In this document: in pieces, positions 6,241-64,000 of the stretch | Numbering within the stretch: the stretch's first letter is position 1 | How the letters are laid out: every line of letters begins with the position of its first letter | Source of the DNA: Eledone cirrhosa | Taxonomy: Eukaryota | Direction of reading: 5' to 3' | Length of the DNA stretch: 64,000 nucleotides | Assembly: GCA_964016885.1 (NCBI GenBank) | Contig: OZ024740.1 | Location: forward strand, 379,874,001 to 379,938,000 | Made by a program: the position numbers and the translations under genes | Notes under the pieces: model-generated | The model's database searches: none | The model's input: the letters and a program-made list of their open reading frames with translations, nothing else | Told to the model about the DNA's origin: nothing

Positions 6241-6513
6241 TCTCAACATTTAAGCTGTTGTCCCACGATAGCAGACTCAACGATGTGTGCGTGGCTCGGC
6301 CATGTGTTTTGAAGAAAAGAAATTTAAAAATATAAAGTTCAAATATTTGGGCCCAAAGACCCAAATATTATGGGCCGCCTTTGCGCAGGTCAATGAATGG
6401 AACCTCATATACAGTTCGTGAGAGAAATATTCAACAAATTCCACTTTGAAACAACTCAAAATAACCAACCTTCCGGAGCCAATGTGAACACGTCTGTCGC
6501 AAACGAACAACAA

Positions 6514-6696
6514 AATAATTGTTTCTATTTTAGGCCAGCAATTACCCAGTACATTACTGGTACTTTATTTTATCGACCCCGTAAGGATGAAAGGCAAAGT
6601 TACCCTCGGCGGGATTTGAACTCAGATCATAAAGGGACGTAACTCTATGCTTCAAAGCATGGTGTCCGACTCTCTACCGATATTGCCAAACCACCG
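6514..6696 (-). mobile_element. tRNA-derived SINE, family A
   Basis: A-box (TGGCAATATCGG) and B-box (GAGTTCAAATCCC), plus the conserved core GCCTTTCATCCTTACGGGGTCGATAAAATAAAGTACCAGT shared by more than 10 copies in the window. Confidence 0.9.
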
Positions 6697-7137
6697 ACAC
6701 CAAAGCAATAATAATTAGATAGTATGTCAGGTTTTGACACTACCAAAAACGCGTACCGAGAAAATACTATTGTACATCTAGTACTAACAGCATGAACCCA
6801 ATATTTGCAATAAAATGTAAAAGTAATATAGCCCAACGAACAAGATCAAAGCCAACCGGCTAATGGGTCATGTCGTCACAGACACAGACAACACATACAC
6901 AAGCACATACATAAATACATGCGCATACACAAATTAATGAGCAAATACATGAACATACAAACATATACTCACATACACATATATACATATGTGCAACTTA
7001 AATGGCGAGGATTGTTTGAAAAACAGAAATGAAAATTGGAAGTGATATTTGAAAGTTGAAGCGGATGTTTTATTGAGTAGAGCTATGTTCAAATATGTTC
7101 CAACTGTGACAACATTATTCAGTATATCATTATAATC

Positions 7138-7244: not shown

Positions 7245-7796
<552 letters not shown>

Positions 7797-13072: not shown

Positions 13073-13146
13073 GTTCAAGACCCCGACCCAGTCCAGATAT
13101 AGCCGTCGAAACGGGTTGAGCTCTGCCGTCGGATCCTGAACATTTT

Positions 13147-13192
<46 letters not shown>

Positions 13193-13349
13193 GTTCAAGA
13201 CCCCGACGGCAGAGCTCAACCCGTTTCGACGGCTATATCTGGACTGGGGTCAGGGTCTTGAACATGTTCCTACTACCCACACTACTACCCTAAGTATTGA
13301 GTACTCTTGTGCGTAATGGTCCAGCTGGTTCCTTACCACACCTCCTTCG

Positions 13350-18646: not shown

Positions 18647-21003
<2,357 letters not shown>

Positions 21004-21916: not shown

Positions 21917-22012
21917 ACCCCCTGAGATGTTCGGCTATTTATTCACCAGGCTAAAAATTCTTATTTACTCCAGAATTAGCCGTCGAAACGGCTTGAGCTC
22001 TGCCGTCGGGGT
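21917..22012 (+). ncRNA. Extended type I hammerhead, mutated core copy (CTGAGAT)
   Basis: ACCCC-CTGAGAT-GTTCGGCTA...TAGCCGTC-GAAA-CGGC-TTGAGCTCT-GCCG-TC-GGGGT. Homologous to the intact copies at 52059 and 52756. Confidence 0.8.
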
Positions 22013-22337
22013 CATACTTGTTCCTATTAACCAATCTACTGCCCCAAGTATTGAGTACGTTGGTGCGTTATGGTCCATCTGGTTCCTTACCACATTTCCT
22101 TCGTTATATATATATATATATGTATATATATGTGTGTGTGTGTATTTCCTTTTCTCACTAGTCAGGACTTTCGTTGCTACAGATCACGCGGCTAAATTAG
22201 CGGTCGCTATTTTCAATTTGCAAGCCCTTTTAAACTGTATGTTATTACTCTGAGGTTTATTACTTGTCGAGTGCTTGCCTCCACTACTGAAGGCATTCGT
22301 TCGCTTGGCTGCTGATCGAACTTCGAATATGCTGTAC

Positions 22338-22371
<34 letters not shown>

Positions 22372-22374
<3 letters not shown>

Positions 22375-22581
22375 GAAGGAAGTGTGGTAAGGAACCAGAT
22401 GGACCATAACGCACTAGAGTACTCAATACTAGTACAGAGTACTCAATATTAGACTGGGTAATAAGAAAATGTTCAAGACCCCGACAGCAGGGCTCAAGCC
22501 GTTTCGACGGCTATTTCTGGACTAAAATAATAGCCGTCGAAATGGCTTGAGCTCTGCCGTCGGGGTCTTGAACATATTCCT
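22372..22581. mobile_element. Mini Penelope-like insertion: inverted pLTR ends in (TA)n
   Basis: The minus arm has the long end (TTCGTT) and the plus arm the short end (TTCCT). Confidence 0.9.
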
Positions 22582-26096: not shown

Positions 26097-26208
26097 AACG
26101 AAGGAAGTGTGGTAAGGAACCAGGTGGACCATAACGCGCCAGAGTACAGTTCAGAACTAGTTGTCGAAACGGCCGGAGCTCAGCCGTCGGGGTCCTGACT
26201 CTTTTCCT
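26097..26208. mobile_element. Mini Penelope-like insertion: inverted pLTR ends in (TA)n
   Basis: The minus arm has the long end and the plus arm the short end. Same family as 18867-22105. Confidence 0.88.
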
Positions 26209-33467: not shown

Positions 33468-33653
33468 CGTGGATTGGCAGTATCAGTAGAGGGTCGGACG
33501 CCATGCTTTCCAGCATAGTTACGTCCCTTTACGATCTGAGTTCAAATCCCGCCGAGGTTGACTTTGCCTTTCATCCTTACGGGGTCGATAAAAACAAAGT
33601 ACCAGTAATGCACTGGGTAATTGTTGGCCTTGTGCCTAAAGTAGAAACAATTA
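33468..33653 (+). mobile_element. SINE family A
   Basis: Full head, core and tail GGCCTTGTGCCTAAAGTAGAAACAATTA. Confidence 0.92.
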
Positions 33654-34755
33654 TATACCGACGACTGTCAAGTTAGATAGCTGAATGTTAAATCGTACAG
33701 CTGAAGCAATTATGTATTCTTAACAAATACATATGATATAATTAGATATTTTACAGCAGATAGCAATACTCAGTATTGCTTTCTGTTGACTATACACAAG
33801 TCCTTAACTTTATAGCGGAATTTTACTTGCCTTACGTCGTAAATGCCCCTTCTAGTTGAAATTAACAATATAAATGAAATGAAATGAGTTCAATTGAGAA
33901 CAGGAATATCATTACAGATTTAGTTTGTTAAGAGCTAGAATTGTAGCCTACACCATCCAAAGTGAAAATAATGTCTGGATGCTTTATTGAACAAGATCCG
34001 GAATTAGTTTATATATTTTATTCATGTTTTCTACTACTGCATTGCCTTCATAATTCCTTTTCATGGACATTTTAGATCCAACTTTTTCTCTCTTTTCTGT
34101 CTAACTTTATCACATCTGCTTCTAAAACACGACTGCATTAAATGCGTTAATAATAACTTATATATTAAATGAGATATATATTAACCATTCGCTTGAAAGG
34201 AAATAGAATATTTTGTATTTAGATTTTAATGATGACCATATTATTTACATTTGAACATATAGTTGTCCCAGCGCAGCTAATTACACTGATAATTGGTCAC
34301 TATAATTATCGGCGTTGGGACCACTATATTTTCAAATGTAAACAATATTTTTTTTCTTAGAAGCAAATGATTAATATATATCTCCTAATTGATCACTATT
34401 CTGGTAATTGATCTTTATTCTCTGTAGAGCTGTTCTGATAGAGAACGGGTCGCAGATGGCGGATAGTAATACGGCCACCAGATATGATGGTTATTTGTGA
34501 TATGAGCCGACAGCTGCCAGACGAATAAGCAACAGCAGGCCAAACAGTGGTAAACTACTAGGGAAAATAGAGCAATGGGTGACACATATAGCTCCCAAGA
34601 AAATTCTCACATCTCTGTGATTTAGCTATGACGAGGCGAGTAAAATCCGCCTCTAAAAATGCCTAGTCCTCGCGTGTGTTAAAAAGTGCCGGCTTGGTGA
34701 CTGGCGCGAATAAGACCACCAAAACAGAAATATGGTGAGAGGTATGAAAAAAACT

Positions 34756-34947
34756 AATTATTTCTACTTTTGGCACAAGGCCAGCAATTACCCATAGCAT
34801 TACTGGTACTTTATTTTATGGACCCCGTAAGGATGAAAGGCAAAGTTAACCTCGGCGGGATTTGAACTCAAAATGGCAAGGGTCGTAACTCTATGCGTCA
34901 AAGCATGGTGTCCGACTCTCTACCGATACTGCTAATGCCCCGCCCCT
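34756..34947 (-). mobile_element. SINE family A nested in the RTE 5' UTR
   Basis: Full family-A consensus on the minus strand, absent from the homologous UTR at 11560-11680. Confidence 0.92.
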
Positions 34948-35102
34948 AAAAAAGAATAATAAAACATCATCCTTCACGTGGGTAACAAGGAACGCGTTCA
35001 GGCCTTAGGTAGAGGGGCCTGTTCGAAAAATATATTGTAGTTTTCATTTCATACAAAAAGAAAACTTGCGATGGGCCCGCGACCTGCCCTGGGAGGCATG
35101 GG

Positions 35103-42802: not shown

Positions 42803-42984
42803 GGGCGGTGGTTTGGCAGCATCGGAAGAGCGCCAGACACCATGCTTTGTAGCATAGTTATGGCCTTTTGCGTTTTGAGTTCAAATCCGCCGAGGTTAAC
42901 TTTGCCTTTCATCCTTACGAGGTCGATAAAATAAAGTACCAATGATGAACTGGGTAATCGCTGGCCTTGTGCCAAAAGTAGAAA
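42803..42984 (+). mobile_element. SINE family A with 17-bp TSD
   Basis: TSD CTCTATTTATCTTAAGG at 42788-42804 / 42985-43001. Confidence 0.95.
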
Positions 42985-44393
42985 CTCTATTTATCTTAAG
43001 GATGTTGTACATGTCATGTAAAAGGTCGGTCACACGGGACAAAGATAGAAAAGGGAGAAAAAAGAAAGAGAGCGATGGTAGCGATGTTGGGGGTGTCAGC
43101 AGCGGCGAACCTTTTTAAATCCCTTACTGTAAAGGGGTGGTACGAGTATGCGTGTGAATTGGTGTCTGTAAGAGCACGTGCGTGCGCGTCAGATAGCAAA
43201 GGGAGAGAACAAAAAGATGAGTTACTTTTACGAAAAATATTGTTTATCCTTAAATTGTAGTGAGTAACATATTCTATTTTGTTAGAGTCAGTCATTTATT
43301 AAATGTGTGTGTGTATAACGTATATAACGTATATAACGTATATATAAAACATTTAACACGTCATATCGGTGGTTGTTTCTAATTAAGTCATGGAATTTCC
43401 ACGGGGTCAGCTAGTTGCTATACGTTTCGTAAAGGACCTAATTAAAACATGATTGCTGAGCTGGCTCACAAAGAGCTTTTCTCGACGACGTTCAACTATT
43501 CTGAAGAAGTCATTGTATAATGGTCAGCTCTTCTTAATGCGAAACATTTTATTGTTAATAAAGGCTTCCTACCATTTCATTGTTTGTTTTGTTTGTTTGT
43601 TTAAACTGCAACAGCTAGACTAACATGCGGGTGTTAACATTGAAATTTCAGTCACCATTAGAGCTTTATTCACCAGCTGTGGTTTTAGTCTGTGTTATAC
43701 ATGCATTAAATGAAGTGGAAGTTTACAATTTCTAATAATTTAAATTTTCTTTTAAACACAATATAGTGGTTTTTAAGTGTTTCTGACGATTGTCTGTAAT
43801 AAAGCAGCCGATAAAAGCTTAATGAGATGTATTGTCTGAGTCGTAGGTTGGAATTTCCACAAAAAGTTTGCTGCGTCAAACGTTTTGAATCAGTAAAAAT
43901 TGATTATCAGTGAATGAAAAAAAAAGTGTCTGTTACCGGTGAATTTTGTATGCGTCTACAGAGAATGGTTGGGGGTCGTTTTCATAGATACAATGTAAAA
44001 AGCATAAAGGTCCTTTAATTCTTGATGGAGTCAAAGGAGTCGCGCCCTGACACACTGCGTGTCTTGGGAAATTTAAACCTGGCGCAGCCCATGACCCTGC
44101 AAGATATACAATAGTTTACTTTAACTGGATTCAAAACTTAATCCTGTTATTTACATTCGGAATAACCTGTAGCCCTTTTACGAATCTATCAATTTACCGT
44201 CCTTCTTCCTTTTTAGAAGGACGGATTAGACCAAGCATTTGCTCGAAGAATGAAAGACACTGAACCATTATTCTAGCTTGCAACATATATAGCCCCGATC
44301 TCATTGCCAGCTACCTAGTACACTAGAGAAAACATTGATACTAGAGCTTATATAGACTTGACTGCAGATAGACATTACATCAATGATATTGAT

Positions 44394-46620: not shown

Positions 46621-46940
46621 AATATGTTAACTTTGTTCCTTCCAGATACCCCCACTCAAAATACCAGTTTTCGGTAAGATAAAGGAGTTACTCTAGTACA
46701 TGTATCCATACTGAATTATGAATAAGCGAAAGGTTTAAAAATGTTCCAAAAATAAATATTCCATTCAACCCGTATTCGTATTCGTATTCTGTTCACCTTA
46801 AGTGATGCAGAGTGGACAGGAAAATGTTCGGAATTTTTCATTTGGTAAAATATTCCAAATTATTTTCCTTTTATAGGTACGAGGTAATATTGGGAGAGCG
46901 AAGCGAACACGGTCGCCCAGGCTGAATACAAATACAAAAA

Positions 46941-47305
46941 TAATAATTGTTTCTACTTTTTGGCACAAGTCCAGCAATTACCCAGTACATTACTGGTACT
47001 TTATTTTATCGACCCCGTAAGGATGAAAGGCAAAGTTAACCTCGGCGGGATTTGAACTCAAACCGTAAAGGGACGTAACTATGCTAGAAAGCACGGCGTC
47101 CAACCCTCTGCTGATACTGCCAATTCACCAAGACCAGCATTTTAGGAGGAGGAGGGGAAAGTGGATTACATCGACTCCATTACTTGACCGGTAGTTTTAT
47201 TTTATCGACCTGCAGCCTGGAAGGATGACAGACATAGCTGACTTCGGCGGGATTTTAACTCAGAACGCAAAGATCTGGAACAAATACCACAAAGCATTTG
47301 TCCGA
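46941..47305 (-). mobile_element. Two adjacent SINEs (family A 46941-47130; related older copy 47135-47305)
   Basis: The family-A core appears twice on the minus strand. Confidence 0.88.
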
Positions 47306-50419: not shown

Positions 50420-50609
50420 CGGTGGATTGGCAGTATCGGTAGAGGGTCGGGCGCCATGCTTTGGAGCATAGAGTTACGGTCCTTTATGATCTGAGCTCAA
50501 ATCCCGCCGAGGTTAACTTTGCATTTCATCCTTACGGGGTCGATAAAATAAAGTACCAGTAATGCACTGAGATAATTGCTGGCCTTGTGCCAAAAGTAGA
50601 AACAATTAT
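50420..50609 (+). mobile_element. SINE family A
   Basis: Full consensus with (TATT)n tail. Confidence 0.93.
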
Positions 50610-51392
50610 TTATTTATTTATATTCTCCTTACAACACCAACATACTTTCCGAAACCCGGCCCGGCGACATGCCACTATACTTTCGGGCTACATCTGGGAC
50701 CTCCAAGATAATAATATAACCTACAATCTCAGTTGGAGCGTACTGTCCAGAGCTAACTCTTACACGGGAAGACGCCGTCCGTGTAACTTATGCTCGGAGG
50801 AAACATTACAAATGCTGTTTTCGAAGGACCAACTCCTAAACAAGAAAGACGAACTGGTAACCGCATGCAAACACAGATTGCGTAGGACTTACCTCGCCCT
50901 CAAACCTCATAACGACCCGGGTGGGTAGACAAGGGCTGATACCCCCCACTTGCAAAATAAGTTAGGGGAAACCCCAGCTTACATAGGTAGATGTACCTCT
51001 TTTCTTTTCCTCTATGTTGTCTTCTTCCCCCTGTCTCATCCTATCACTTCCTTCCACCCCCGATCTTCTTCCTCGTCTGTTTTTCCCCTTCCGCCTACCC
51101 CGATGCAGCCCATCGGTCCTCTGTAGCCTCAGCACCCCACCCCTGTAATTTTAAGATAGAATTGGCCGAATACGCTTTACTAACTATTTATAGCAGATGT
51201 GTTAGACCCCTGTAATTTTGCATCATTTTTGTTACTACTCCAATTCTACAATTTCAATATTTCTTATTTAGTATTTTCTATTCTCAACCCATTAACCTGT
51301 AATTGTAAGATAGCATTGGCGGATTACGCTTTACTAACTATTTATAGCAGCTGTGTTAGACCCCTGAAAAGTTTGCATTATATTTTTTCACT

Positions 51393-51581
51393 TGGGTGGT
51401 GGATTGGCAGTATCGGTAGAGAGTCGGACGCCATGCTTTGACGCATAGAGTTACGGCCCTTGCCATTCTGAGTTCAAATCATGCCGAGGTTAACTTTGCC
51501 TTTCATCCTTACGGGGTCAATAAAATAAAGTACCAGTAATACACTGGAATCATTGCTGTCCTTGTGCCAAAAGTAGAAACA
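51393..51581 (+). mobile_element. SINE family A nested in Penelope 3' UTR, 16-bp TSD
   Basis: TSD ATTATATTTTTTCACT at 51377-51392 / 51582-51597. Confidence 0.95.
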
Positions 51582-52058
51582 ATTATATTTTTTCACTACC
51601 CACTTCTACAATTTCTTATTTAGTATTTTCCATTCTCAAATTATTAACCTTTTCTATAGCTTTGGCCGTACAAGCAACACCTACTAATTATAGCAGCTGT
51701 CTCTAGACTCTACTGTTTTTTTTTAAAATTAATTTCTCACTATCTAATTTTATATATTTTCTTTATATTTCTTTCTATTATTTTTTATTGTCCCCTACTC
51801 TCATTTGACTTACCTATTCTATTACTTCCCTCCTCCATTTTCTCCAGAACAATTTTTCGCCTTTTCATACACTATCCATAGAATCTGGTGTATAGATTTC
51901 ACTTTCAACGCTTGACCGGCTCCACTCACTCCCTCATCGTTCTACAGGCAACTTCAGCCACCCCTACCCCCCACCAAATGCCATGACAGACTTATTTGTG
52001 TTTACAACAAATTTTGACCAATCCTCTTGACAACTACAATCTTCCCATATAAGGAAGT

Positions 52059-52154
52059 ACCCCTTGACAAGTTCGGCTATTTATTTACCAGGGTAAAAAT
52101 TCTAATTTAGTCCAGAAATAGCCGTCGAAACGGCTTGAGCTCTGCCGTCGGGGT
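52059..52154 (+). ncRNA. Extended type I hammerhead, U3-A8 core (TTGACAA)
   Basis: ACCCC-TTGACAA-GTTCGGCTATTT...AAATAGCCGTC-GAAA-CGGC-TTGAGCTCT-GCCG-TC|GGGGT. Confidence 0.85.
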
Positions 52155-52166
52155 CATACTTTTTCC

Positions 52167-52214
<48 letters not shown>

Positions 52215-52271
52215 CATACATATATATATATATATGTATGTATGAATGTATATATATATCCCCGCGCGGAC

Positions 52272-52622
52272 ATATATGCGCGGGGACATAGAAATAGTTG
52301 GGCTGGACAACGGATCGCGCGGTTAAACCACTGAGAGTGAAGGACCCCTAGCATTTGTCAGAGCATTCTTCTAGGAGAAGGCAACTCAGGAAACTGGGAT
52401 AACTCCGATATAAAACCTGCGGCTCAATAGTTACCGATGATGTTGATCTTTTCTTCTTTTCGGGTTATAGCTACTGTCGCTCAGAGAGAGGGACTGGCTC
52501 AGTGCACAGTCTTTCCTCACTTTAAAAAATATCTTAACGCACAGGCATTGCACGATAGAATTAATTAATAATTATTAACAATGGTATATCGTGCAATGGC
52601 CATACTCGATAACGAGAGGGCA

Positions 52623-52629
<7 letters not shown>
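52272..52629 (+). mobile_element. Unclassified ~355-bp non-coding interspersed repeat, copy 1
   Basis: High identity to 53566-53923. It has a CTAGGAGAAGGCAACTC...AAAACC motif reminiscent of RTE UTRs, a 3' hairpin CATTGCACGATA/TATCGTGCAATG, and is embedded in (TA)n. Confidence 0.75.
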
Positions 52630-52699
<70 letters not shown>

Positions 52700-52742
52700 T
52701 GTATGTATGTATGTATGTATGTATGTATGTATATATATATAT

Positions 52743-53396
52743 AGGAACCAGTAAGACCCCGACAGCTGAGCTCAAGCCGTTTCGACGGCTAATTCTGGAC
52801 TAAATGAAAATTTATCCTGGTATTTAAATAGCCGATCTTCTCAAGGGGTAATTCCATATATGGTCAAAGTGATTGTCAAAAATCAGTAGTAATTCTGTGG
52901 TTGCAAATTAGTAGGGGAGATGGTGGCTAAACCTGCCAGTAGGAGAAAGAGGGGAGGGGGTGGAGTAGACCCAATCAAGCGTTGGTAGTGCCAGCTACAG
53001 CTGGACATGAGGTCAAAGAAGATACAGGGGAGGGGGAGGGGGAGGTAGTCGGAACGGTAGGTAGAACAATGGGGGGTAGAAAAATATATATAGGAAAGAA
53101 AAAATACTGAGAGTGAAGAAAAGCAAATAAGTGTAAAGAAAAAAGTAAAGTAAATTAAATTCTACGACCTAGGTCTCAGGCTATTGTTAGGCTAGGATAA
53201 AATAAAGAAATAAATAAATAAAGAAATAACGAAATAAGTAAAAGAACTAGGTGGGACGGAATAGGCAAGGACCCTTTTAAGAGGTATAAGTACGTAAAGG
53301 GGTCTTACTGGTTCCTATTACCCACTCTACTACCTCAAGTATTGAGTACTTTGGTGCGTTATGGTCCACCTGGTTCCTTACCACATTTCCTTCGTT
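52743..53396. mobile_element. Penelope insertion: inverted arm (52743-53296, diverged subfamily) plus forward tail (53299-53396)
   Basis: The minus arm is homologous to 21750-22025 and ends at TTCCT. The plus arm runs from GGGGTC to TTCGTT, with (TA)n on both sides. Confidence 0.9.
52756..52849 (-). ncRNA. Extended type I hammerhead, U3-A8 core (TTGAGAA)
   Basis: Minus strand reads ACCCC-TTGAGAA-GATCGGCTA...TAGCCGTC-GAAA-CGGC-TTGAGCTCA-GCTG-TC|GGGGT. Confidence 0.85.
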
Positions 53397-53565
53397 ATAT
53401 ATATATATATATATATTTATATTGGACAGATTGCAGGACAAAAAACAAAACCTGACAAAGGGTGGAAGAACTCATAAGAGTCAACGGCTATCCAAAAGTG
53501 TGTAAATATGTATATACACTTGTAAATATGTATGTATATGTGTATATACATTGTTGCATGTGTAT

Positions 53566-57438: not shown

Positions 57439-57996
57439 TAATATATTTCTTAGCTGTAGTGTGCAGTTTGCTTTGTTATTTCTGCTTGCCTTTGACTATA
57501 TATATATATATTATATATATATATATACAGTACAACAGTGTATTATCACTCGTTCACTGACAGAATGCTAAACCCTTGGATATTTATACCAAATTTGTAC
57601 TATAATACATATAAAGTCCAATGATTAGATCGACAAATATTTGTCATAATGTCGGAAGAAGAAGAACAAAAATGCATTTGTGTAAAATATTAATTTTTTA
57701 TATTTTTTATTACAAACTTAAAAATAATCAACGATATTACCAAGACAAGGTTGACATGGAACTATTATTACATTTCACGATGCATCACACAGAATACGGC
57801 ATATTTGTTTAATCATTTTCTTTTTTCAAATCTAAACTTCGTGCTTTTCATTTTTTAAAACAATAAAAAAGTTTCAGAAAGAAGAAAGTTTTAGGCAAAA
57901 ATAACATGGACTGTAGAAAACATATTGTCATAGCATATATATTATGTTTTTGTATACATACATATAGATACATACATATTATAAACACACATATAC

Positions 57997-61490
<3,494 letters not shown>

Positions 61491-64000
61491 ACACCTCTCT
61501 CTATATATATATATGTTTGAGTATGTATGTATTTATGTGTATGTTGTGTATGTTGTGTATGTGTGTATGTAACCTGTCAGCTATGTTATAAAACTGAACA
61601 AGTCAGCTTTTAAGAGTCAATTAGAACTGGTATAAAAACATTAGTCAAGTTATATATTTCTGGTGAAAAAATACCCACAATTTATATATATTATATTATT
61701 TGCAAATTCCCCATAAAAAATGAAAGAAATCTGCCTAAAAATTATCCCCTATTAAAATTGGTCAAACTTTATACAATATACATGTAAAAGAAAAAATCCC
61801 CTTGCCGATACACATAAAGAGCAGAAAGGTCTGTTCAAAATTTAAGATAATTATATTGGTAATTACAGTAAATTATTAAAATTTTTATTTTGGTCTTATA
61901 TTAGATTTGTTTAATCAAAATTAGCTTAACTAAATTCTAGAGACCATTTCCGAAATTAGAAATATATTTATGTATGTGTGTACGTATGTATTATATGTAT
62001 ATATATTATATATATGTGTGTGTGTTTGTGTGTGTGTGTGTATCTAAATATAAACACACACCACACACTTATGTATATATTTAGTTTAGGAGATTTAATC
62101 TAAATAGATTTAGATTGCTGCTATCAGACTTAATGTAATATGTAGCTAGGCTGGTTACTCATTTTAAATGTCTCATTTACTTAGCTGACTCCACCCAGTA
62201 GCCATCACAGAACTTGTTGGTGGTTATGCATTAAAATAAACTTTAGTAGAGATTAAAATATATTAACTATTATGAAATTATATCAATCATAAGTATCATT
62301 GCACATCTCAAGAAAAATAGAGGAAACACAGACCCCACAATTTCAGGTCACCTAACAGTGAATAAAACCTATATGTTTTAGAGGTTTCTGCTACACAGAA
62401 ATTAGCTGCCTCAATCCATCTTGTGAGTGTTACATTCTGACATGCTCAGCATAAATAATCTTGAATCACCCTACTCTCATCTAATGCTTGAGGCTAGTTA
62501 TGTTAATATGCTTGACATAAAATGTCTGCAACTTTAAACAATCCATGTCTACATGACAGTATGTATATGTACTGAGGCTTAATGTTAAAAAAATATGAAA
62601 TTTATTTGTGCAAGTAGGGTTCCTAAATATTATTGTACATTATTTAAGCCATTTAAATGTGTCTGTATGTATATTTTTGTTTAGAGATTTCATGTCAATC
62701 TGCCTATATATCTGGAATTTGTGTGTGATGTATGGTGTGAGCATGTGACAACATCCATTTTCATGAAATGACACAAATATGATATCAAGTAGACAAATAG
62801 CTAGTGTGTGAAGTGTGGAGAGATTTATTGTAAAAATAGATATGTGTGTTTATGTATACTTTTTCTCTGCTTATGATTTCACATAAATTATCACATTAAT
62901 AATTAGTTGGCCTGTGAAAAATATTAAGATAGCTAAATAATTTCATTTAGCTATCTCTTTGATGTGTATTCTTGGGACATTTTTATTTTTCATATTTTTT
63001 AAAAATATTTTATAAAACAATCTAATTTAAGATACATTGTCAGCATTAGAAACAAAATTAAAACAAGAAAAAAAAAGACATTGATAAACTTAAGAGATCA
63101 GATAGAAATTAATAAAAAATAGAAGAGATAATCTCTGTAAAAATTGCCATCAGAAATTAAGCAACACTATATACATGCAGTTTGAAAATAACAAAATATT
63201 TTTTTTTGTCTCACAAGGTAAAAAATATTTTTAACCAATAATATTTTTGAAAAACAAACAAAACAACACCATAGCACTGAAATGGTTGCTATAATTAATT
63301 TTCTCATAAACGAACAATTAAGTTCTTCCTGAAACAATGATGAACTCATCAACTTTTCACTAATACTAATAAGTATTAAAATGTTAAGAAATAGATGTGA
63401 AAGTAGTTATTTGTTATGTACACTATTTTGATAAGCTTTCATTGTTTTTATCACTGGAAAACATTGGAATTCTGTCGAACAATTGACAGTATGCTCTTTA
63501 TTCTTTTTAAAATCATTATTGTTATTACTTCCATTATCAATGTTTCATGGTGAGTGCAAGTAGAATAGACGTTAGTTATCAGTGATCTATGCCTGAAATC
63601 CAGTTTTGATTCCTGGATGGAAATGCTTATATTACTTACAATGCTAATATTCTTGGGGAAAAGGTATAAATGTCACAACTTCCCAATTCCCCTCCCACTA
63701 AAAGATCAGGTTTCATGCTTATATGGAAAGCAATTATTTTTGTTAGTGTTTTGTGGAAAAGAGTGGTTTAAACTCTAACACATATGTCAGTATGAAAATA
63801 GAATTGACTTTTATCAAAAATGCTATTATATTTCTTCATATGTTATGTTACATGAATTTTGAAATTTTTTAGATATTATTCCACAAAATATATAGATGCC
63901 TAAAGATTTAGGCTGGATACCCAACGAAAATTTGCTATGGCACTGATCATATATCTTTAATGATATACTGATATAGGGCTAAATTTAAAAGCATTTAAAA

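Follow-up and report, generated by a model that had tools for sequence, protein, structure and literature searches.

Three long-armed hammerhead motifs in a 64,000-nt stretch of the Eledone cirrhosa genome (contig OZ024740.1; the whole stretch is referred to as the window) raise the question of whether the hammerheads of Penelope-like elements (PLEs) act in vivo, and of what the long arm holds. The available text of a 2014 paper (PMC4209133) states that there is no in vivo evidence for a role of the PLE hammerhead, and the part of the 2024 reconstitution available (PMC11167929) reports no reads at the cut site and finds that cleavage is not required in vitro. Here the ends of genomic copies were counted. 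Copies of the motif, which has a U3-A8 core and a long stem II arm, start in excess at the predicted cut site and at one site in loop II, and it is likely, with a probability of roughly 0.75, that the motif is cleaved in vivo and that a capped transcript starts inside the ribozyme. Old insertion ends can thus give single-base evidence, from DNA alone, for cleaved and capped RNA ends, and the same counting is applicable to any high-copy PLE.

Hammerhead motifs in the window

Three complete type I hammerheads were located by a check of the sequence, at the positions of the original prediction. Copy A (subfamily A) spans 52059-52154 on the plus strand, copy C (subfamily C) 52756-52849 on the minus strand and copy B (subfamily B) 21917-22012 on the plus strand. 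Common to all three are stem I ACCCC/GGGGT, a seven-base core, an arm of 54-56 nt closed by G10.1-C11.1 plus a six-pair helix, GAAA, a GC-rich stem III with a nine-base loop containing GAGCTC, and GUC. In copy A, 52059-52063 pairs with 52150-52154 to form stem I, followed by the core TTGACAA at 52064-52070, the stem II arm at 52071-52126 and GAAA from 52127; loop III is palindromic, C17 is at 52149 and the predicted cut lies between 52149 and 52150. Copy C has the core TTGAGAA, with C17 at 52761 and the predicted cut between 52761 and 52760. Both cores are of the expected form TTGA(C/G)AA, and the stem II domain, put at about 55 nt beforehand, measured 56 nt in A, 54 nt in C and 56 nt, from core to GAAA, in B. 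The core of copy B is CTGAGAT, in which the A9 change is private to the window copy; the initiator-like site described below is also altered, and a long tail follows the motif to about 22110. Positions of copy starts are given relative to G12, so that the scissile bond lies directly before +23.

The hammerhead is the minimum-energy fold for copy C and within 0.3 kcal/mol of the minimum for copy A. Three helices surround the core and the structure is open at helix I, as in type I, and the core shows a 3-8 pair, U4 G5 A6, A9, G12 A13 A14, A15.1-U16.1 and an NUH triplet. Single window copies folded no better than shuffled sequences (z = -0.47, -1.05 and +0.55). It had been expected that standard descriptors would miss so large a form, and this was borne out: the 150 listed of the window's 249 Rfam matches include no hammerhead family, and none reached the gathering score in the 8 loci scanned. 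The relaxed core search, as given in the available text of PMC8557442, allowed 7-17 nt.

The host element

The three hammerheads are genuine members of type I and sit in the terminal repeat of an abundant Penelope retroelement of Hydra type. A (TA)n-targeting PLE had been proposed, and its terminal repeat, (TA)n ends and RT-GIY-YIG open reading frame (ORF) were all found. Intact copies (loci L091 and L092) have a 3,547-bp unit with a 719-aa ORF, the ATG of which is 212 nt after G12, i.e. 230 nt from the putative transcription start, with no ATG between. The protein contains RWR, DKT, a CxCx5C linker, a C-terminal GIY-YIG region, CxxC and CxH; the Pfam GIY-YIG match on the window fragment had an E-value of only 0.09. 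A single ORF with RT and C-terminal GIY-YIG, DKT, CxCx5C, CxxC and CxH is as in the Hydra clade, where the position reading RWR here is RWK. The Hydra-type label is a probable one that draws on the match of these protein motifs to the description in the available text of PMC8557442. A first-look search for the endonuclease region gave 63,848 candidates, a figure that includes more distant families.

(TA)n insertion, a pseudo-LTR (pLTR), a tail and an inverted truncated partner are all present. The 3′ ends of copies, at (TA)n, fall at two fixed points, about +41 and +125 from G12, and such a two-point tail is the usual mark of internal priming according to the available text of PMC11167929. Assignment to the non-LTR retrozymes, which are short non-coding tandem units, was rejected since A-C lie within a coding 3.55-kb unit.

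Copy A belongs to a 5′-truncated element at 50632-52169 (plus strand) that ends at (TA)n and consists of the end of the GIY-YIG region (50632-50925), then a 3′ UTR with a SINE-like insert, and the hammerhead. Copy C belongs to a 5′-truncated element at 52741-53298 (minus strand), comprising 3′ UTR and hammerhead and 95% identical to the intact L091 unit; the opposite arm of this insertion is a short long-tailed copy at 53299-53401 (plus strand) that starts exactly at the predicted cut site. The RT and GIY-YIG frame of element B is broken into three pieces at 18872-20964 (plus strand), 86-91% identical to the 719-aa L091 ORF.

Several repeats accompany these elements. The SINE-like sequence in element A (51377-51600) is about 200 nt long and has at least 10 copies in the window, among them those at about 6509-6715, 33469-33657, 34741-34960, 42803-42985, 46936-47130 and 50421-50615. 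The 85-nt tail (22026-22110 and 53318-53401) contains short palindromes. Many more distant PLE families, with 31-59% protein identity to the L091 ORF, were found in unselected stretches (L131, L141, L133, L098, L105, L135, L096, L142, L102 and L129). At G000:C2:356030076-356031890, seven matches of the junction between subfamily C tail and 5′ UTR lie 299 bp apart; this array is a short tandem derivative of the terminal repeat, possibly a young retrozyme.

Core variant, arm length and covariation

U3-A8 had been put forward as a tolerated core variant, and it is already in print, for PLEs of Cercyon (PMC4209133) and for other natural hammerheads (PMC3088659), in the text available of each. As a fold, the motif is a variant with precedent. 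U3-A8 occurs in subfamilies A, C and D. Subfamily B, which is partly defined by C3, has C3 opposite A8 in 38/38 copies and CTGAGAA in 37/38; with C3 opposite A8 instead of a 3-8 pair, it is doubtful whether the subfamily B motif alone would be active, and for the window copy an open core is predicted with a probability of 0.003.

Genome-wide, the U3-A8 pattern with an arm of 48-64 nt gave 17,344 matches, those of an unrelated family (family E) included, vs 1,528 in the reversed control, and the canonical core with a long arm gave 6,173 vs 307. A general hammerhead descriptor applied to 950 kb, made up of 95 evenly spaced 10-kb stretches, returned 67 matches vs 0 in reversed sequence. Arm length in these unselected stretches ranged from 12 to 59 nt, and U3-A8 was found there with arms of 13 and 20 nt as well. 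A constant arm length across families was therefore rejected as an artefact of the 48-64 nt search pattern. So was a link between U3-A8 and the long arm: U3-A8 occurs with short arms and the canonical core with long ones, so the two traits are independent. Many unrelated hammerhead families here have long stem II arms, whichever of the two cores they carry.

Stems had been described as persisting in the diverged subfamily at 52.8 kb. They are present in both A and C, but this is not covariation, because the sequences of the stems are nearly identical. A more distant comparison was provided by subfamily D. The 5′ strand of its stem II was predicted from the 3′ half of short copies and then used as a search pattern, which gave 163 matches vs 0 in the control, a few of them inverted pairs or decayed A/B copies. 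Among 26 aligned copies, picked from about 170, three stem II pairs are changed on both sides between D and A, across the start site, one of the three being built into the search pattern. Pairs with two-sided changes were no more frequent than in shuffles (352/500) and all come from one split, D vs A-C; paired cells and the covariation score exceeded all shuffles (0/500), by a measure that relatedness inflates. The covariation that had been looked for thus appeared in three compensated pairs, but only with subfamily D and not above shuffles in two-sided pairs. Stems I and III are nearly invariant, the distal pairing of the proposed stem I extension GGAA/TTCC is lost in most D copies, and pair 10.2-11.2 is mismatched in 24/26 aligned copies.

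No conserved inner fold of the arm was found: a proposed inner helix is 66% paired across subfamilies, and RNAalifold predicts no inner pairs. The suggestion that the stem II domain binds protein is not supported by this. The companion suggestion of a regulatory module fared better in an unforeseen form, in that copy starts and a cap-like G indicate that the arm most likely holds a transcription start. A palindromic loop III with dimer cleavage is the standard model in the available text of PMC6765202. That the palindrome favours pairing of two copies agrees with the calculated energies, both for whole-plus-half cofolds (see below) and for the stem III piece, for which the self-dimer is at about -27 kcal/mol vs -5 to -6.5 kcal/mol per hairpin in 4/5 copies tested.

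Copy starts at the predicted cut site

Starts of tail-bearing A/B/C copies were counted genome-wide with patterns having three upstream mismatches and equal degeneracy, their base composition unmatched. Counts at the seven positions tried were 32 at +20, 46 at +21, 51 at +22 (patterns for these three positions additionally need an intact CpG), 293 at +23, 54 at +24, 70 at +25 and 38 at +27; all reversed controls gave 0. The first base after GUC is +23, and this position was named before the count, after 3/181 local tail copies had been found to start there. These three are not independent of the genome-wide count, and their small number indicates that cleaved templates are a minority. Among the first 100 listed +23 matches, counted by hand, 13 may owe their Gs to the inverted partner arm and some are tandem duplicates, while 18 (about 13 independent) lie directly after TAT, with no G to borrow. 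Subfamily D gave 120 matches at +23 vs 38 at +21, the sole neighbour tried; a hand count found 23 of the first 100 listed at +23 to be ambiguous because of an inverted partner arm. The +23 spike is likely to be a fossil trace of in vivo cleavage.

Start positions of the short copies

The majority of copies are short, their 5′ ends lying at a wall within loop II. Of the 63 copies sampled from the 95 evenly spaced stretches and the window, 43 have their first base within -23 to -4; the 8 copies that start upstream of this range all lie beyond -115, leaving -115 to -24 empty, and the remaining 12 start downstream of it. All loci together gave 305 copies, of which 141 are truncated; the mode of these is -18 (32 copies), followed by -17 (18) and -19 (12), and 13 start further upstream. 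Genome-wide, 1,452 starts were counted at -18 vs 198 at -20 with a looser pattern. Thirty of 227 copies run on into the 5′ UTR; 5 of these start between -15 and -4, 4 have no ribozyme-side match and the others start at -60 or further upstream. Sequencing depth in one unlabelled run, which is not a copy number, is about 30-fold higher in the 3′ than in the 5′ half of the motif, in agreement with the wall.

Several such copies lie in the window. A short half-ribozyme copy at 13090-13132 (plus strand) starts at -18, as does its inverted partner at 13197-13245, and a copy of the diverged subfamily D at 26148-26194 (plus strand) does likewise. The inverted pair at 7292-7482 starts at -17 on the minus strand and -4 on the plus strand, and that at 22372-22569 at about -21 and -10.

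The wall keeps its position between A/B/C and D, despite the diverged loop of D. Position -18 is the A of TTAGT(C/T), or of TCAGT in one subfamily; in copy A the site TTAGTC is at 52107-52112 (plus strand), with the putative capped start at 52109, and in copy C the corresponding A is at 52801 (minus strand). We take TTAGT at this position to resemble the initiator consensus; a match to the downstream promoter element was weak and was given no weight. The available text of PMC3846280 terms TCACT Inr-like.

In full-length L1 insertions, the mRNA cap leaves its trace as an additional G at the 5′ junction (PMC11702581, text available in part). A first local test for such a base (C 18, G 15, T 20, A 1) was confounded by inverted partners and was redone on (TA)n flanks. 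Of 215 matches in which one base separates ATATAT from A(-18), the first 100 listed were counted by hand, and this base was G in 80, A in 13 and C in 7; the pattern admitted neither T nor junctions lacking an extra base, and a few matches are tandem duplicates. Before the -14 junction, where only A and G were admitted, it was G in 1 and A in 97 of 98. In 170 full copies -19 itself is T in 160, C in 9, A in 1 and G in none. Non-templated G and T are added by R2 at junctions even in the absence of a cap (PMC13000458, in the part available), and since the extra G here is specific to one position, unlike addition of the R2 type, we infer a capped start at A(-18). The stem II arm most likely holds this transcription start. 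That a start in loop II generally accounts for long arms was not supported: among the matches listed, families F and E have no wall there, and the samples of families G-K are too small for a judgement.

Alternative readings of the copy ends

A hard stop at -18 would also be expected if reverse transcriptase were blocked by a protein bound to loop II, in the sense of the binding module suggested beforehand, or by the loop's own structure, and the position of CTAA/TTAG is kept in A and D; R2 shows that an enzyme can add G without a cap. Such a block is improbable. The G:A ratio of 80:13 at -18 (first 100 listed), against 1:97 at -14, is specific to the site, the inner helix is weak and poorly conserved, stronger stems have already been passed by the enzyme, and in other families 5′ ends accumulate upstream of the ribozyme at sites of the TCAGA and TCATA types, in small and partly selected samples. 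It is very improbable that the short copies derive from short non-autonomous masters, or from spliced RNA with TTAG as acceptor, rather than from the start of the full message. TTAG does follow a CTAAT in A and D, and introns are possible in PLE terminal repeats in the available text of PMC4209133 and PMC2377424; splicing would however place 5′ ends after AG, at -16, joined to a common exon, whereas the actual copies include AG and adjoin unrelated flanks. The wall is moreover seen in four subfamilies and in copies that reach the 5′ UTR, two of them reaching the ORF.

The cut-site excess could also be read as a product of pausing, at the G run or the three-way junction, or of microhomology, with the ribozyme an inactive relic conserved by the start site alone. 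The variant core, the 10.2-11.2 mismatch, the C3-A8 opposition in B and the unremarkable z-scores would fit a relic, and a promoter function could conserve the sequence from -18 onwards. We regard this as unlikely. The excess is one base wide at a position predicted in advance, and a stall before stem III would give +22, not +23, so that cleavage fits better. Stem II pairs co-vary across the start site, between strands linked only by RNA pairing, and microhomology had no G available in the 18 junctions after TAT. Cleavage together with a capped start in loop II is the reading retained below.

Proposed mechanism

RNA polymerase II would start at the A of TTAGT, and the 5′ end of the message would then carry the substrate half only, that is the 3′ strand of stem II, GAAA, stem III, GUC and the 3′ strand of stem I. 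As the substrate half alone cannot cut itself and there is no upstream ATG, the cap would be kept and the ORF would be translatable; a start inside the ribozyme would, if true, explain how a self-cutting element yields a translatable message. The read-through 3′ repeat would carry the whole ribozyme. Reverse transcription from the tail sites of the 5′ repeat would run off the capped end to give the copies of about 60 and 140 nt that make up the bulk of insertions, and copies starting at +23 would derive from cleaved RNA. As sources of the +23 ends, cutting of one RNA end by the other, cleavage of read-through RNA in cis and a leftover 3′ piece are all conceivable.

The least certain steps are that the whole 3′ ribozyme might pair with the 5′ half through the palindrome and then cut, and that the 41 nt common to both ends (-18 to +22) might serve as an R-like repeat for template switching or circle formation. 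For copy C, a whole plus a half cofolded at -49.3 kcal/mol vs -33.2 kcal/mol apart, as a hybrid hammerhead; A gave a hybrid with the core partly paired, and the D copy tested gave no hybrid fold. One clear subfamily chimera (L078) is present among the full copies tabulated, too few for crossover mapping. As a tentative model, a split-ribozyme switch may be envisaged in which the 5′ cap half is removed by the whole ribozyme at the 3′ end to leave unit-length RNA with ligatable ends, the 41-nt overlap acts as a ribozyme-bounded R repeat that builds pseudo-LTRs by a template switch or a circle, and the 60-140 nt copies are integrated strong-stop cDNAs. For Poseidon_Ac, the available text of PMC11167929 reports that cleavage is unnecessary for insertion in vitro, which weighs against the favoured reading. 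The putative nested start and the cut-site record make the role of PLE hammerheads directly testable with a short set of RNAs.

Comparison with known systems

In Hydra-clade PLEs (Craig et al., 2021; PMC8557442, available text) type I hammerheads likewise lie at the 3′ end or pLTR of elements with (TA)n targets and the DKT, CxCx5C, CxxC and CxH motifs. The entries in the part of File S2 available all have a canonical CUGANGA core and a loop II of 3-10 nt, whereas the element here has U3-A8, a 54-56 nt arm and a 9-nt palindromic loop III, and its unit is 3.55 kb vs generally under 3 kb in that clade. In a marine-metagenome relative (36% identity; 3 contigs, one sequence) the hammerhead is small and canonical. 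The minimal hammerheads described in the available text of PMC4209133 for Cercyon PLEs and Schistosoma mansoni are alike in U3-A8 within a PLE terminal repeat, in a long helix II and in the dimer model, but they are without helix III and have a helix II of 7-8 bp; in vivo evidence is stated there to be lacking, whereas here copy ends mark the predicted cut site.

Poseidon_Ac of Anolis (Frangieh et al., 2024; PMC11167929, available text) shares the pLTR hammerhead and the two internal RT starts that define the tail; it has a canonical core, no reads at the cut site and no reported start inside the ribozyme. Penelope of Drosophila virilis (PMC2377424 and PMC4209133, available text) also has an internal polymerase II promoter in the pLTR and a helix II bulge, but its transcription begins upstream of an intron whose end is at helix I, which leaves the whole ribozyme at the 5′ end of the RNA, unlike in the message proposed here. 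Long loops have been recorded before: in the accessible parts of PMC8557442 and its File S2, PLE-X1 of Selaginella has a loop II of 29-34 nt, marked as deviating, and Naiad has 'half cores' 35-50 nt apart, but both have a canonical core and belong to other clades, with no mechanism proposed. The plant retrozyme NbRZ1 (PMC12029980, available text) resembles the cycle proposed here in a start within the terminal repeat and a terminally redundant RNA; its transcript includes a complete ribozyme and is trimmed at the 5′ end in cis, unlike the message proposed here. Neither a start inside a PLE hammerhead nor copy ends at the cut site were found in a literature search of open texts, subscription papers being outside its scope. 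U3-A8 is already known; the new evidence lies in the copy ends, with the putative nested start site and the likely record of cleavage.

The proposed cycle may also be set beside that of retroviruses and LTR elements. In these, a start site within the terminal repeat gives a terminally redundant RNA, with an R repeat and strong-stop DNA. The difference here would be that the 3′ boundary is set by a ribozyme and that priming, as proposed, occurs at nicked DNA.

Other long-armed hammerhead families

The genome contains many long-armed hammerhead families undetected by Rfam. Nearly all of the 67 hammerheads in the 950-kb sample have a palindromic stem/loop III, and their density suggests a genome-wide number of type I hammerheads of the order of 100,000 or above. 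Family E (L107:3429, L221 and G000) is a very young, non-coding 593-nt tandem element resembling a retrozyme, with 940 first-look candidates; its hammerhead is unrelated and has a U3-A8 core, an arm of 57-59 nt containing a GCAA-capped hairpin and the same base of stem II, two pairs followed by a bulge. At least 6 more long-armed families have canonical cores (L291-L320, L137 and L237-L260), some of them 484-485 nt tandems, and several carry the motif GAGTCGGG...TGAGCTGATC in the arm; none of the canonical-core long-armed families scanned reached the Rfam gathering score.

In the families at L113, L347 and L313, 5′ ends pile up about 35-70 nt upstream of the cores, at sites of the TCAGA, TCATA and CAGTT types, and these pile-ups are likely to be start sites. 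A degenerate TA/TG/CA microsatellite of about 3.7 kb occupies 57800-61600 of the window and is the source of spurious long open frames and of miRNA noise in the Rfam scan.
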